Below, one piece after another: positions 1,978 to 6,756 of a stretch of 64,000 nt of DNA. The DNA is taken from the sequence record PP400784, one strand, 5' to 3'. Numbering within the stretch: position 1 is the stretch's first letter; each line of letters begins with the position of its first letter. The stretch comes from Escherichia phage FL38. Made by a program: the position numbers and the translations under genes. The notes under the pieces were generated by a model, which saw nothing but the letters and a program-made list of their open reading frames with translations, had not been told where the DNA came from and made no database searches.

Positions 1978-4029
1978 TTACATTTTAAATTTATCTGGCA
2001 TTGCGTCTACAGATACCAGATCAGCGATAAGCTGACGTAGAGTTGCCTTATCTGCTTTCTTACGTTCGGTTTTAGCTTCGCTAATGAAGCTGGAGAAAGA
2101 CAGGTCAGAAGCAGGTTTAACAACACCTTCACGGATGAATGCATCACCGTCCGCGATCATCTCGCCAGATTCTTGCAATGCTGCCAGTTCATTTTTGTTC
2201 ATAATATGTGCCTCAATGTAATAAGTTTCTTGTGAATCCGTCGATGCCGTAGCACGAGTTACCGTATCAAAGGATAACACAACACCGCGAGGAAGTAAAA
2301 TCTCGCATTCTTTGTAAGCAAATGCTTTGTTACCTACTGGCAAGACAGGGATGTTTTCCGCGCCAGCAATGGAGAAAGCAACATTAGCGCCACCTTCACC
2401 GCGAGAGCCAGCCATAGAATCAACACCAGCAACGGCACTAGCCACGTTTGCATTCCAGCCGCCAAAAATGTTAGGTGCAAGGGAAGTGCTCACATAGTTT
2501 TTAAAGTAAAACGCTTTTTGCTTACGTGCAGTTTCCCACATTTGCGACCGGAAGTCCATACCACGATACAGAATAGTACCCGGATCAAGTTTAACGCCAT
2601 AGTTGGAGAAGGCATTATCCAGTGCATCGCACATCTTGACCAATTCTTCTGGATCTGAGATGCCTTCAAACTCTTCCAGCTTACGGTCGGTTAGGAAGTT
2701 GTTCATATTGATGTATGCTGCATCGGCATATTCGCTCAACACAAAACCTTCCGCGCCTGGCAGATCAAGATCAATATCTGCCATCATTTCACCCATGTTG
2801 CTAGCAATTGCTTCAAACATACCGGAAGCAACATTACGTAGGGCATCGGTTTTGATCTGGGTGATATGACTACGCAGCATTTCAGCTTTTACATCTGCTG
2901 GCATAGACTGGTCTACTCGATCCATTGCCAGGGCGGTGATCTTGTTTTCGAATACTTCCTCGCTCATGATTTCTTTTAAGCGTTTGATTGATGCTGCGAT
3001 AACTTCCGCAGACAACGGATCATATTGATCCTGAACTTTTACCAGTTCGCTTACTGCGTATTTTGCATCGGCTTCGCTTTCAAAAATAGTACGCATGAAA
3101 CCATAGCGAGTGATAATATCACTTGTCCATTCATTCAGAGAACGGGCGGTTGAACGTTCTAAGGCTTGACGATCAATCAGAGTATTAAACTGTTTCTTAG
3201 GTTCGGCTTCGGTGATATCTTCTTCCGGTTTAAGATTAATTTTTTCTGGATGATTCACATAGTCGCTGTTATAGGTCGCTTGAGTTTTCAGCATTTCTTC
3301 TTTAGTCAAACGAGATTTAGCCGCTACGCGTTGTTCTGCTTCCGCGTTTCGTTCTTCTTCTGACACAAGACTGGCCGCATATGCCTCATCTTTAGTCAGA
3401 GATTCACCAGTAGCCTTAGATACCCAGCGATCACCTAAATCACTTTCTACTTTAGTGAACAAGGATTCATCAAGTTTAATCCCTTTAATCTTATCAATCG
3501 CCATCCCGCGACGCTTGACAACAACTAAAGCGATCTTTTTGCTGGTCATTACTTCCTGCTGGAATACTTCAAACTTCGGTGTACGACGCACCAAACGCTC
3601 TATAACGCGCTTAACCAGTTCGGTCTTACCTTTCATGCGGGATACGTTAAAACGGAACATAACAGCGTCTAATTGCGCTTTACGGGCTGTTTCCATAACC
3701 ACATCAAAAGCACTTGACATAACTGCAATCGGGTTATCGCCTAGACCATTTTTAAGCTGTACAATACGACCGCTTTTGTTCATTTCGCACAGTACAACAT
3801 GTGCGGTCTTGTCACCCATACGAATGATTTTAGGTGTTTTGTTGGTGAAGTTACAAAGACGGACAATCACATCTTTATCGCGTGTCTGTACTGCAAAAAG
3901 CTGTTTAGGATTCTGCTTAGGCTTTAAGCACTGTACCGGAGCAATACTGCCAAAGTTTTCTTCCTCTTCCGTCAACAGCCATTTCTCGAAAGATTCAATC
4001 ATTAGATCGTCGATTTCTAAGTTAAACAT
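1978..4029 (-). CDS. alt: Alt, packaged ADP-ribosyltransferase acting on host RNA polymerase
   Basis: 683 aa (T4 Alt 682 aa); ART motifs YRGMDF / YVSTSL / ECEILLPRG; position between gp54 and DNA ligase region. Confidence 0.85.
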   Translation of the reverse strand: MFNLEIDDLMIESFEKWLLTEEEENFGSIAPVQCLKPKQNPKQLFAVQTRDKDVIVRLCNFTNKTPKIIRMGDKTAHVVLCEMNKSGRIVQLKNGLGDNPIAVMSSAFDVVMETARKAQLDAVMFRFNVSRMKGKTELVKRVIERLVRRTPKFEVFQQEVMTSKKIALVVVKRRGMAIDKIKGIKLDESLFTKVESDLGDRWVSKATGESLTKDEAYAASLVSEEERNAEAEQRVAAKSRLTKEEMLKTQATYNSDYVNHPEKINLKPEEDITEAEPKKQFNTLIDRQALERSTARSLNEWTSDIITRYGFMRTIFESEADAKYAVSELVKVQDQYDPLSAEVIAASIKRLKEIMSEEVFENKITALAMDRVDQSMPADVKAEMLRSHITQIKTDALRNVASGMFEAIASNMGEMMADIDLDLPGAEGFVLSEYADAAYINMNNFLTDRKLEEFEGISDPEELVKMCDALDNAFSNYGVKLDPGTILYRGMDFRSQMWETARKQKAFYFKNYVSTSLAPNIFGGWNANVASAVAGVDSMAGSRGEGGANVAFSIAGAENIPVLPVGNKAFAYKECEILLPRGVVLSFDTVTRATASTDSQETYYIEAHIMNKNELAALQESGEMIADGDAFIREGVVKPASDLSFSSFISEAKTERKKADKATLRQLIADLVSVDAMPDKFKM

Positions 4030-4097: not shown

Positions 4098-4310
4098 TTA
4101 TAATGCACCATCGAGCAATTGCTCTAAGGTGTATCCTGAATAGTCTTTTTCAATCAGGATATATTTTCCTACTCGTTTAATACAACCGCGCATTTCAACG
4201 TATTCTGCGTAGTTGATGGTACGAGTTGTTCCATCTTCCAGTAATGCAGTACCGATTTCGTTAATGCGGTCATAAGTTACGTCGGTAATGATGATTTCGA
4301 TGTTAGCCAT
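4098..4310 (-). CDS. Hypothetical early protein (70 aa)
   Basis: ORF with SD AGGAG and upstream promoter cassette. Confidence 0.6.
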   Translation of the reverse strand: MANIEIIITDVTYDRINEIGTALLEDGTTRTINYAEYVEMRGCIKRVGKYILIEKDYSGYTLEQLLDGAL

Positions 4311-4346
4311 TTGATACTCCTTAGTAGTTCGTTTCGGTATGGGTGT

Positions 4347-4375
4347 ATTATGCTATACACCCTCTGTTATGTCAA
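4347..4375 (-). promoter_or_regulatory. Early sigma70-type promoter cassette (PeSL-like)
   Basis: Minus strand TTGACA-17 bp-CATAAT, A-tract upstream, conserved leader CCATACCGAAACGA then SD. Confidence 0.7.
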
Positions 4376-4381
4376 CAACTT

Positions 4382-4561
4382 TTAGAACATTTTTGAAATT
4401 AATTTTGCTTTGATTTCGCAGAGAACACCTAAAGATTTCTCGTCACCCGCTTTTGCTGCTTCTGATTGCATTTTTGAAATTGCTTCAATGTCAGTGCAAT
4501 TATAAGCCGCTTGAACTTTAGCGATTGCGATGATTGCCGATTCGATGGTTAAGTGTTTCAT
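4382..4561 (-). CDS. Hypothetical small protein (59 aa), not in ORF track
   Basis: ATG with SD AGGAGAA, flanked by promoter cassettes on both sides; translation MKHLTIESAIIAIAKVQAAYNCTD... Confidence 0.5.
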   Translation of the reverse strand: MKHLTIESAIIAIAKVQAAYNCTDIEAISKMQSEAAKAGDEKSLGVLCEIKAKLISKMF

Positions 4562-4593
4562 GTTTGATTCTCCTTTCGTTTCGGTATGTGTGC

Positions 4594-4622
4594 ATTATAG
4601 GGGATCACTGATCCCCTGTCAA
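4594..4622 (-). promoter_or_regulatory. Early promoter cassette with palindromic spacer
   Basis: TTGACA-GGGGATCAGTGATCCCC-TATAAT on minus strand; spacer is a perfect 17-bp palindrome. Confidence 0.7.
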
Positions 4623-4633
4623 CAACTTTTTAG

Positions 4634-5149
4634 TTATTTTTTTAATTGCTCATCTTGCAATAGGGCAATCACATGCTGGCGATGTTCTTCCGATTGAGGA
4701 ACACCGAAAAAGTTTGTTTTGTAGAAATACTCTAATCGGTCTTCTCGTGTGCTCTCTTCCATCATGATCGCGGGTAGTCCGAGATTTCGGAAACGTCGCT
4801 TTTCTGCTGGCGTAAAATCACTGTAATACAACATAGAATCATCATTACCAGCAATGCTAAACTCATCTTTCATGAAGGAGAATATTGCGTTTAAACGCTG
4901 TTTACCGTCCACGATTTCGATCTCATAGCGAGAGCCATCATCAATCTTAGCCATTGCGATAGCACCAACAGGAAAATCATTAATCATGTTTTCGATAAAC
5001 ATACGTTTGTTTTCGGTGTCCCATACCAAAGGACGCTGATAATCTGGGTTCATGTTGATAAAGCCATCTTCTAACCACGCCTCATAAACAGAGATGACAA
5101 AGTTTTTAGTATTGGTATAGTAACGGCGTTTAGGCGTTAAACGGTTCAT
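4634..5149 (-). CDS. DUF262 / ParB-like nuclease-domain protein (171 aa)
   Basis: Motifs DYQRPLVWD and IVDGKQRLNAI typical of DUF262 (GmrSD N-terminal, ParB/Srx fold); start trimmed to ATG with SD AGGAGA abutting upstream stop. Confidence 0.55.
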   Translation of the reverse strand: MNRLTPKRRYYTNTKNFVISVYEAWLEDGFINMNPDYQRPLVWDTENKRMFIENMINDFPVGAIAMAKIDDGSRYEIEIVDGKQRLNAIFSFMKDEFSIAGNDDSMLYYSDFTPAEKRRFRNLGLPAIMMEESTREDRLEYFYKTNFFGVPQSEEHRQHVIALLQDEQLKK

Positions 5150-5150
5150 G

Positions 5151-5480
5151 TTATAGTCTCCTGAATGGATCATCACGTAAATCAATATCTTTTAAGAACT
5201 CATCCCATGAATGGCGGATATTGTTCTCAATTCTCCAGATAAGCGCAGGGATTGAACGTTCTCCCATCTGGAAGTAAGGATCATATGATCCATATGCCCA
5301 ATATGCTACGACAATTCCACAATCAGCGCAATAATATTCTATTTCACTTGCTGGCGACCAAAGTCCATCAATATGATCAGTGATCTTGCTTTCGATGTTA
5401 TGGCTATGGCAATCAGGGCAACGGATGCAATGACCTTGTTTATCGTAATTTGACGTTAGAGAATACTTAAACAATCTCAT
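5151..5480 (-). CDS. Zinc-ribbon protein (109 aa)
   Basis: Cys clusters C-IRC-PDC and YCADCG; TAATG stop/start overlap with upstream gene. Confidence 0.5.
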   Translation of the reverse strand: MRLFKYSLTSNYDKQGHCIRCPDCHSHNIESKITDHIDGLWSPASEIEYYCADCGIVVAYWAYGSYDPYFQMGERSIPALIWRIENNIRHSWDEFLKDIDLRDDPFRRL

Positions 5481-6196
5481 TATAGATCCTTATTGGCTTC
5501 AAATACTGCCTTTGCGAATCCTCGCGGCGTAAGTGACCTGATAGTCTTTGTTTTCGTTCCTTTCCCGCCTAGCTTAGAATGCTGTTTACTGTACCCTTTA
5601 TTAATCTGCAAAGGTTTCTTTTCTGGCATTATAAAGCCTTGTCCGGTCCATAAGCAAGTCTTTTTCGGGTACATATCACGGGCGGCAATATACTCAGGAA
5701 ACGTAGGATGTTTGTCATCTTCCGGCAAATAACCGCCATATTCCCACGGATGGAACATGTAATCAGGCTTACGCCACATACTAGAGATAACGCTTACAGG
5801 ATTCTCTATCATGTAGGGAACTCCTAGCCATTCACCCAAATAAGCGGTTATTTTAGCTGCCCGTACATCATGAACTTGAATCAATGGTCCTTGTTCTCGT
5901 TTCTTTCGTTCAAAGTGCGCAGCGCCACTAACAGCTAAATTGGTGCACGGTGGGAATGCAAAGATAATATCCGGTTTCCCCCATTCAAGGTCCATTGCTC
6001 TTTCCAGCCAGTTCAAATCAATCCAGGTGTTTACATAGGTAATGTTTGGATGTTCAAATCTGGTATTATACTTTTTGTATGTACCGTGGTCGGCGTCATC
6101 CGCATTAAAGCAGACTACATTATGACCTGCTTTAGCCCATTCTAGCCCCATTATCCCCGATCCGTCAAAGTTGCAGAATATTAATTTTTGTTTCAT
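5480..6196 (-). CDS. SAM-dependent methyltransferase-like protein with C5-cytosine MTase-type motifs (238 aa)
   Basis: FCNFDGSG (motif I-like), FAFPPCTNLAVSGA (PC catalytic motif IV-like), VPYMIENP (ENV motif VI-like); no obvious target-recognition domain. Confidence 0.4.
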   Translation of the reverse strand: MKQKLIFCNFDGSGIMGLEWAKAGHNVVCFNADDADHGTYKKYNTRFEHPNITYVNTWIDLNWLERAMDLEWGKPDIIFAFPPCTNLAVSGAAHFERKKREQGPLIQVHDVRAAKITAYLGEWLGVPYMIENPVSVISSMWRKPDYMFHPWEYGGYLPEDDKHPTFPEYIAARDMYPKKTCLWTGQGFIMPEKKPLQINKGYSKQHSKLGGKGTKTKTIRSLTPRGFAKAVFEANKDL

Positions 6197-6438
6197 ATAC
6201 GACCCTTTAACCCAGTACAGATTTTAGTCGGTTCTTTACCGTGCCACATTAAGTAAAGTCCGTTAATGCGACCTTGTTTTGTGTGTGATTCTTTTCTGAT
6301 CTTCTTATAGTGTCGTGCTTCCTCAACCGATTGTTTAGAATACCAATCATAAAGGAATAGGCACAAAGGCCAACCATTAGCGGCCTTAATGCAGTTATTA
6401 AGAAATTCCTTATTGCGTTTAATTAATTTTCTTTTCAC
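6193..6438 (-). CDS. Hypothetical protein (81 aa), apparent GTG start
   Basis: ORF overlaps neighbours by 4 nt at both ends (GTGA / ATGA), suggesting translational coupling. Confidence 0.4.
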   Translation of the reverse strand: MKRKLIKRNKEFLNNCIKAANGWPLCLFLYDWYSKQSVEEARHYKKIRKESHTKQGRINGLYLMWHGKEPTKICTGLKGRI

Positions 6439-6686
6439 GCTGCCCCCATTGGTTTGATAGTAACAGAATCTAAAAGACCTTTGTTAGCCAGTTCGCGGCA
6501 AGTTTTCAGATCCGCAACTTCCCAGCCAGCCGCAATCAGGTTATCAATGAGGCTGTTAGCAACTTCTTCGCTCATGAAAGAGCACTGTTTGCCTATGGTG
6601 TAGCGTACACGCTGTAATTTCAGTTTACGGAAGCCTTTAACGTTCAGGTCTTTAGCGATTTTCTTTGCGGTTTCGATGTTAGCCAT
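6435..6686 (-). CDS. Hypothetical protein (83 aa), first gene of coupled cassette
   Basis: ATG with SD AGGAGAATCA directly downstream of promoter cassette. Confidence 0.6.
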   Translation of the reverse strand: MANIETAKKIAKDLNVKGFRKLKLQRVRYTIGKQCSFMSEEVANSLIDNLIAAGWEVADLKTCRELANKGLLDSVTIKPMGAA

Positions 6687-6726: not shown

Positions 6727-6756
6727 ATTGTAGGGGATCTCCCGATCCCCTGTCAA
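6727..6756 (-). promoter_or_regulatory. Early promoter cassette
   Basis: TTGACA-18 bp (GGGGATCGGGAGATCCCC)-TACAAT on minus strand. Confidence 0.65.

Follow-up and report, generated by a model that had tools for sequence, protein, structure and literature searches.

The early region of Escherichia phage FL38 (sequence record PP400784) carries a block of five small genes between two promoter elements, on the minus strand of the 64,000-nt stretch of DNA analyzed here (the window, to which all coordinates refer unless another record is named). In a preliminary description, this block was taken for an operon combining a C5-methyltransferase-like enzyme, a zinc-ribbon protein and a DUF262/ParB-like protein, which could not be placed among the described functions of T4-type phages. 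The best explanation, which we hold to be likely, is that the cassette forms one early unit of the genus Krischvirus, a mosaic of independently acquired accessory genes that include a compact orphan C5-methyltransferase. A place for the cassette is readily found, as it is annotated in about 55 Krischvirus genomes and its methylase belongs to a common family of which one member has been tested.

The third gene of the block encodes a protein of 238 amino acids (aa) that is predicted to be a compact orphan C5-cytosine DNA methyltransferase of the widespread phage 'Dcm-like' family. The FxGxG, PPC and ENP motifs pointed out in the preliminary description are present (F10-x-G12-S13-G14, P82-P83-C84 and E131-N132-P133), and F10, G12, S13 and G14 of motif I, P82-P83-C84-T85 of motif IV, the whole of motif VI and a family-specific C-terminal block (W-R...K-x-T...L-G-G...T-K-x-I-R-S-L-x-x-R) are invariant in 24 diverse relatives. 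The proposed check with hidden Markov models (HMMs) gave a divided answer: the Pfam family PF00145 reached 15.8 bits, below its cut-off of 22, and covered residues 10-100 only, whereas the family phrog_757 'DNA methyltransferase' was matched over residues 1-237. PF00145 is the sole Pfam family that recurs across the 24 relatives, 13 of which match it at E < 0.1 (best 1.3e-6). An approximate alignment to M.HhaI ends at motif IV (hhalign E = 0.012). The catalytic-domain fold of a C5-cytosine methyltransferase was recognized in the protein. The statement that no target-recognition domain (TRD) is recognizable proved too strong. A large classical TRD is indeed lacking, but about 85 conserved residues lie between motif VI and the C-terminus (W141-R142...K178...KLGGK..TK.IRSLTPRG), and this block, which ends IRSLTPRGFA.AV, may take the place of the TRD and motifs IX/X. 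The protein database holds 7314 relatives, the best 120 of which are 219-259 aa long, and the family occurs in 1521 phage records from Drexlerviridae, Vequintavirinae, Klebsiella siphoviruses, phAPEC8-like phages and others. At the loci examined in other phages, the methylase gene is accompanied by helicase, primase or small open reading frames (ORFs). Pfam, PHROG, NCBIfam and PADLOC scans for a cognate nuclease gave no nuclease family match in any gene of the cassette.

By its sequence, the 238-aa protein is a new member of a methylase family that has already been probed experimentally. Mutants of the Drexlerviridae phage K42 (KarlJaspers-like) that escape the retron Ec86 all carry disruptions of a 711-bp gene for a 'Dcm-like C5 cytosine methyltransferase' (bioRxiv 10.1101/2023.08.16.553469). 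When expressed alone, K42 Dcm produces 5-methylcytosine (5mC) on the multicopy single-stranded DNA (msDNA) in vivo, as detected by LC-MS (liquid chromatography coupled to mass spectrometry), and activates Ec86; the C82A/E128A/K175A/K176A variant does neither, and a CCTGG site in the msDNA is required for the effect (bioRxiv 10.1101/2023.08.16.553469). The Dcm-like gene of FritzSarasin is also 711 bp long and encodes C, E, K and K at positions 82, 128, 175 and 176 as in K42; its product is 54% identical to the 238-aa protein, in which C84, E131, K178 and K179 are the equivalent residues. Because K42 Dcm is active alone, a compact C5-methyltransferase core without a classical TRD can be considered a known, self-sufficient enzyme family. 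By analogy, the FL38 enzyme would methylate cytosine at C5 in phage DNA. RB49-type phages are without genes for non-canonical bases, including hydroxymethylcytosine (hmC) (PMC12115623), and in a further paper the phage TB34, which has the same cassette, is reported to contain no modified nucleosides detectable by high-performance liquid chromatography-mass spectrometry (HPLC-MS) (PMC13390438). Taken together, the missing hmC genes and the absence of detectable modified nucleosides in TB34 imply that methylation must be sparse and site-specific and not a bulk replacement of cytosine.

All five ORFs proposed in the preliminary description are present (Table 1). Each has a PHROG match that spans all or most of its length (E = 4e-34 to 1e-90) and all five are under purifying selection, with pN/pS (the ratio of nonsynonymous to synonymous polymorphism) of 0.00-0.25 in seven Krischvirus genomes (0-0.15 for orf83 and 0.12-0.25 for orf81), so that they can be regarded as real genes. 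An NCBIfam search was unproductive for all five proteins. The stop/start overlaps claimed for the block exist at three of the four junctions: the GTG start of orf81 overlaps the stop of orf83 by 4 nt (GTGA, 6435-6438), orf81 and the methylase gene overlap by 4 nt (ATGA, 6193-6196), and the methylase and zinc-ribbon genes overlap by 1 nt at 5480 (TAATG). At the fourth junction, the zinc-ribbon and DUF262 genes are separated by a 1-nt spacer (TAAcATG). A purine-rich Shine-Dalgarno-like stretch also stands 5-12 nt 5' of each of the five starts. Translational coupling of the five tightly packed genes is probable.

The bracketing of the genes by promoter cassettes, likewise part of the preliminary description, was confirmed in the form of two composite promoter/stem-loop elements at 6756..6727 and 4622..4594. 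Such promoter-early stem-loops (PeSLs) are known from RB49 and Phi1, where they act as strong early promoters and terminators and flank shuffled ORFans (PMC2839356). A search for the PeSL pattern gave three matches in the window against an expectation of zero, and a promoter equivalent to the upstream element is annotated in GEC-3S. The upstream PeSL is a predicted early sigma-70-type promoter that would drive the cassette, and the downstream PeSL is likely an attenuator for the cassette as well as the promoter of the next gene (4382-4561). Inside the cassette, the promoter scan found no strong promoter, only weak matches (9-10/12) at about the chance rate. The tight packing, the PeSLs on both sides and the lack of a strong internal promoter are consistent with one early transcription unit, as the term operon had implied, and suggest that the five genes are co-transcribed.

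Phage MIZ6 shares 98.6% identity with the region, and at least 80% of it is covered at 95-99% identity in 55 Krischvirus records of the RB49/Phi1/JSE/GEC-3S type. The neighbouring conserved wac/neck region is found in 57 records, about the same number, which makes the cassette a genus-wide feature. GenBank records of Krischvirus contain the same five genes and the flanking promoters, with the 238-aa product named 'DNA methyltransferase', 'Dcm' or 'putative C-5 cytosine DNA methylase', the last gene labelled 'DUF262 domain protein' in one record and the other products mostly listed as hypothetical proteins. The cassette has already been sequenced and annotated many times, and the finding is in this respect largely ordinary. 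It exists in a five-gene and a six-gene form, as kaaroe and FL04 have an extra coupled ORF of 59 aa between the zinc-ribbon and DUF262 genes (L012:1149-1328 and L014:1148-1327; around 5150 in the window).

The last gene encodes a protein of 171 aa. Both DUF262 motifs claimed for it are present (D36-Y37-Q38-R39 and D81-G82-K83-Q84-R85), and the HMM check was clearly positive, with 71.9 bits for PF03235 against a threshold of 33.2. No variation was seen among 28 sequences in Y37-Q38-R39 or D81-G82-x-Q84-R85, and in the 28 relatives the whole YQR..VW and DGxQR signatures are likewise invariant, as are Asn146 and His156 in a C-terminal N..G..Q...H block. A ParB/Srx-type fold was recognized in the protein, and its PHROG match spans the first 180 of 417 profile positions. 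The implied likeness to GmrSD-type modification-dependent nucleases did not extend to a nuclease domain: Pfam, PHROG and PADLOC scans detected no DUF1524 or HNH nuclease in the 171-aa protein, which ends with the DUF262 domain, or in neighbouring genes. The protein is predicted to be a DUF262 domain alone and not a GmrSD-type enzyme. Word-indexed homologue searches returned 5 sequences for the DUF262 protein and 1 for the zinc-ribbon protein; an exhaustive HMM search showed that the DUF262 subfamily is sizeable, with stand-alone members of 160-190 aa and others that reach about 280 aa through an N-terminal extension. Relatives occur in 301 phage records, and every context examined was a phage or a prophage (RB43, Slopekvirus, ST64B and metagenomic contigs). 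Domain fusions were considered as a clue to function, but the N-terminal extensions of the longer relatives, of about 130 aa, match no Pfam family. At the 3' end of the FL38 gene (4634-4660, minus strand), the window has a run of seven A (A7) where six other Krischviruses have six (A6), which turns the C-terminus ...LKNN* (172 aa) into ...LKK* (171 aa); the change is either a harmless variation in the length of a homopolymer or an error of sequencing.

The other three proteins differ in how far their relatives reach. In tblastn searches, the 56 records that matched orf83 were all from Krischvirus, with identities of at least 95%. Its residues 12-75 give a weak PADLOC match to positions 722-785 in the C-terminal part of RT_UG35 (E = 2.6e-5), which may reflect a shared small domain or chance. 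Relatives of orf81 occur in 171 phage records, including T5-like phages, Dhakavirus and Karamvirus, and no dcm gene lies beside those sampled. The zinc-ribbon protein has four cysteines in the arrangement C18-x2-C21...C51-x2-C54 and a weak match to Zn_Ribbon_TF (E = 5e-4) that is below the cut-off. Its relatives occur in 90 phage records, with about 43% identity in 9g-like Nonagvirus phages, and neither a methylase nor a DUF262 gene stands beside the relative in the FritzHoffmann locus examined.

These distributions speak against the proposal that methylase, zinc ribbon and DUF262 protein form one system. The number of phage records differs widely from gene to gene (56 for orf83, 171 for orf81, 1521 for the methylase, 90 for the zinc ribbon and 301 for DUF262), and the three genes are never adjacent in 11 loci from outside Krischvirus (four methylase, one zinc ribbon and six short DUF262 loci). 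A second cassette gene within 2.5-4 kb was absent from all 11. Conserved co-occurrence across unrelated genomes, the mark of a multi-gene system, is not observed.

If the cassette is an early unit of independently acquired genes, its operation can be outlined as follows. Host RNA polymerase would start at the upstream PeSL soon after infection and transcribe all five genes, with the hairpin of the downstream PeSL (4594-4622) attenuating read-through. The methylase would use S-adenosylmethionine (SAM), bound by motif I, and Cys84 of motif IV to place 5mC within a short motif with CC in it, CCWGG or, more broadly, CCNGG. Its targets early in infection would be the replicating phage DNA and, incidentally, that of the host. 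The probable benefit would be protection against restriction of the EcoRII or SsoII type, and the cost would be that sensors such as the retron Ec86 are set off. The DUF262 protein would most likely work alone, as a nucleoside triphosphate (NTP)-dependent accessory factor that binds DNA or protein. The sequence data show the gene structure, the family membership and folds, the conservation and the missing linkage outside Krischvirus; co-transcription, the methylation of phage DNA, its target motif and all roles given to the DUF262, zinc-ribbon and two small proteins are inferred.

Several observations weigh against this explanation. Both CCWGG (28 observed, about 65 expected) and CCSGG (7 observed, about 30 expected) are strongly avoided in the window, which is unexpected if the sites are fully protected. 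The tight coupling of the genes and their order, kept in all Krischvirus genomes, are compatible with a functional link, and missing linkage in other phage groups is no bar to one. Moreover, the host in the retron study was dcm+, and a plain CCWGG enzyme acting like the host Dcm would give no obvious new signal. The depletion itself is pronounced: CCNGG is the rarest of all 16 xxNxx palindromes relative to expectation (35 observed, 98.6 expected, ratio 0.35). GGCC is also scarce in the window (29 observed, 70 expected), no GAATTC, GGATCC or CTGCAG occurs (a Markov model predicts 6-16 and base composition 9-20), and GATC is not avoided (341 observed, 336 expected). The phage also relies on site avoidance. 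Decay by deamination was considered as a cause of the CCNGG scarcity; the products CTNGG and CCNAG show no enrichment (0.72 and 0.62 times the expected number), which makes selection against CCNGG the more likely cause.

Further information on the target motif comes from two phages of the Durham collection, SAP (record OZ034687) and TB34 (record OX001802). They are described in a 2026 paper as 99.96%-identical Krischviruses of which SAP reportedly contains hmC and alpha-glucosyl-hmC and TB34 canonical cytosine, a difference without a genetic explanation there (PMC13390438). According to Table S5 of that paper, 14 of the 14 single-base substitutions between them fall on the central base of CCSGG, with CC[C]GG or CC[G]GG in SAP and CCTGG or CCAGG in TB34 (Table 1). 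Half of the CCSGG sites in the first 35 kb are affected (8/16), and the available portion of the main text does not mention the pattern (PMC13390438). The Sanger-sequenced RB49 record agrees with SAP at both sites compared (2830 and 5316), which makes TB34 the odd one out. A second RB49 record, OZ035808, was considered as an independent test and proved uninformative, being a different strain with CCCGG at both sites checked. TB34 has many single-base indels, those checked lying mostly in T-runs, and its record looks like a long-read assembly. The substitutions can be read in two ways. In the first, they are nanopore consensus miscalls in which C(5mC)SGG was taken for the Dcm-type C(5mC)WGG; phage DNA would then be methylated where the host Dcm cannot act, which points to a phage enzyme of CCNGG-type specificity. 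In the second, C was really replaced by T, at a hotspot of methylation or deamination. Both readings point to cytosine methylation in a CCNGG-type context that is out of reach for the host Dcm. Under either of them the signal far exceeds what chance would give, and it hints at the target motif without amounting to proof.

The cassette itself was compared between the two phages as a possible source of the reported difference in modification, and no coding difference was found across a region of 5.7 kb. The sequences differ there by a 79-bp PeSL duplication, four one-base indels in spacers, of which three lie in T-runs, and a 2-base difference at the end of the stretch. The duplication is in tandem and lies directly downstream of the DUF262 gene of SAP (L003:1767-1845, against L002:1766 in TB34; around 4565-4633 in the window); an ORF of 117 nt is annotated across it. 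According to the same paper, the modifications of SAP equal those of the Tequatrovirus TB37 from the same collection, and SAP DNA is the least cut by BrxU (PMC13390438). Because of these TB37-like modifications and the low BrxU digestion, a mixed SAP lysate seems worth excluding.

Other explanations of the cassette were weighed against the same data. The DUF262 protein could be a nuclease-less anti-defence mimic that binds or poisons enzymes of the GmrSD, BrxU or SspE type, or soaks up their nucleotide signal, and that pairs with the methylase to modify the DNA and shield it from Type IV restriction. We regard this as unlikely: no pattern of co-occurrence supports it, and the fully conserved NTP-binding motifs suggest that the protein is no passive decoy but an active enzyme or switch. 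The almost unmodified DNA of TB34 is the simpler explanation of its resistance to BrxU, and SAP is BrxU-sensitive although it carries the same DUF262 gene (PMC13390438).

A functional module, in which the TRD-poor methylase needs the zinc-ribbon protein, the DUF262 protein or both for DNA targeting or regulation, is favoured by the stop/start overlaps, by the same gene order in about 55 Krischvirus genomes and by the shortness of the methylase in the part that a large TRD occupies in canonical enzymes. An analogy is provided by phage and plasmid proteins in which a ParB-like domain is fused to a DNA methyltransferase. The module is nevertheless quite improbable in view of the genes' behaviour elsewhere. 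The methylase stands without a DUF262 or zinc-ribbon neighbour in Drexlerviridae, Vequintavirinae and two metagenomic phage contigs, and expression of the stand-alone K42 enzyme on its own gives activity. No methylase lies beside the short DUF262 genes of RB43, Slopekvirus, ST64B and three metagenomic contigs, or beside the Nonagvirus relatives of the zinc-ribbon gene, and in kaaroe and FL04 the additional ORF splits the zinc-ribbon and DUF262 genes.

In a bolder proposal, the Krischvirus enzyme would be no copy of the host Dcm but a CCNGG-type or otherwise broader methylase for sites that the host leaves unmarked, and the co-transcribed DUF262 protein would shield the resulting 5mC genome from DUF262-family Type IV enzymes (GmrSD and BrxU), a two-part strategy of modifying the DNA and disarming the nucleases that recognize the modification. 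The CCSGG differences between SAP and TB34 would then be the footprint of this methylation; as a whole, we give the proposal very little weight. Least credible of all is that the 238-aa protein is a Dnmt2-like RNA 5-methylcytosine (m5C) methyltransferase or transfers another group such as carboxymethyl or hydroxymethyl, in which second case it could be linked to the hmC and glucosyl-hmC of SAP, as a 54%-identical family member makes 5mC on DNA, the cassette coding sequences of TB34 and SAP are identical and yet TB34 cytosines are canonical (PMC13390438), a post-replicative site-specific enzyme cannot replace cytosine completely, and Pfam and PHROG scans found no TET/JBP or glycosyltransferase partner in the cassette.

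Next to the cassette lie a gene for a 683-aa Alt-like RNA polymerase ADP-ribosyltransferase (1978-4029, minus strand) and two single-gene cassettes for proteins of 70 and 59 aa (4098-4561, minus strand). The 59-aa cassette begins at the downstream PeSL, and the 70-aa one has a promoter-like site of a different form at 4375..4347. An alt gene with single-gene cassettes is the typical layout of the hyperplastic region in RB49-type phages.

Table 1. Features of the five-gene cassette in the window, and positions of the SAP/TB34 substitutions in the records named
Feature	Position	Strand	Details
orf83	6435..6686	-	83 aa; phrog_14908, E = 5e-59
orf81	6193..6438	-	81 aa, GTG start; phrog_7065, E = 5e-38, full length
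Predicted compact orphan C5-cytosine DNA methyltransferase, phage 'Dcm-like'	5480..6196	-	238 aa; phrog_757, E = 1.2e-90
Zinc-ribbon protein	5151..5480	-	109 aa, four Cys; phrog_2993, E = 4e-34
Predicted minimal stand-alone DUF262 protein	4634..5149	-	171 aa; PF03235, E = 1e-19
Upstream PeSL	6756..6727	-	TTGACA-18-TACAAT, arms GGGGATC(GGGA)GATCCCC between hexamers; promoter scan 11/12
Downstream PeSL	4622..4594	-	TTGACA-17-TATAAT, stem-loop GGGGATC(AGT)GATCCCC between hexamers; promoter scan 12/12
SAP/TB34 substitution sites, first group	L015: 2830, 5316, 11508, 15164, 19368, 21108, 31223, 32862		
SAP/TB34 substitution sites, second group	SAP: 108135, 125060, 127945, 140012, 151262, 164969		

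The main value of the analysis is a clarification: the cassette is a genus-wide early operon and not an uncharacterised DNA-modification system, and its key gene comes from an orphan methylase family that ranks among the commonest in enterobacterial phages. How a C5-methylase of about 230 residues chooses its sites without a classical TRD bears on the triggering of the retron Ec86 and on restriction escape in therapeutic coliphages, and the cassette raises the question of the role of nuclease-less DUF262 proteins in phages. Should the CCSGG difference stem from phage-directed methylation, it would help to sort out the Krischvirus isolate that has T4-type cytosine modifications but no genes for them.

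The cassette and its products can be compared with four known systems. Canonical C5-methyltransferases (PF00145, with M.HhaI, E. coli Dcm and the DNMT3 catalytic domain) are about 90-150 residues longer than the 238-aa protein, whose similarity to them is sub-threshold and confined to motifs I-IV. In contrast to them, it lacks a large TRD as well as any clear QxRxR or GNxV motif, and it has a family-specific conserved block instead (WRKP...YPKKTCLW...KLGGK..TK.IRSLTPRG). K42 Dcm is much closer, being of the same length class (236 versus 238 aa) and sharing the residues mutated in K42; K42-type enzymes are likewise orphans, with no cognate nuclease, in early or replication-region gene clusters. 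The enzyme described here differs in its occurrence in Straboviridae, within a PeSL cassette and coupled to four small genes. The DUF262 domain (GmrSD_N) of GmrSD, BrxU, SspE and DndI shares with the 171-aa protein the Pfam domain, the YQR and DG(Q/K)QR nucleotide-binding motifs and the ParB/Srx fold, whereas the latter consists of the domain only, lacks the DUF1524/HNH half and is encoded by a phage instead of a host defence island. Finally, the PeSL ORFan cassettes of RB49 and Phi1 (Arbiol et al., 2010, PMC2839356; PMC4122927) likewise have consensus hexamers around a G/C-rich palindrome, an AT-rich stretch upstream and small early genes in the hyperplastic region downstream of alt. The described cassettes mostly hold one or two ORFans; the present one comprises five coupled genes, or six in kaaroe and FL04, and it is stable across the genus.

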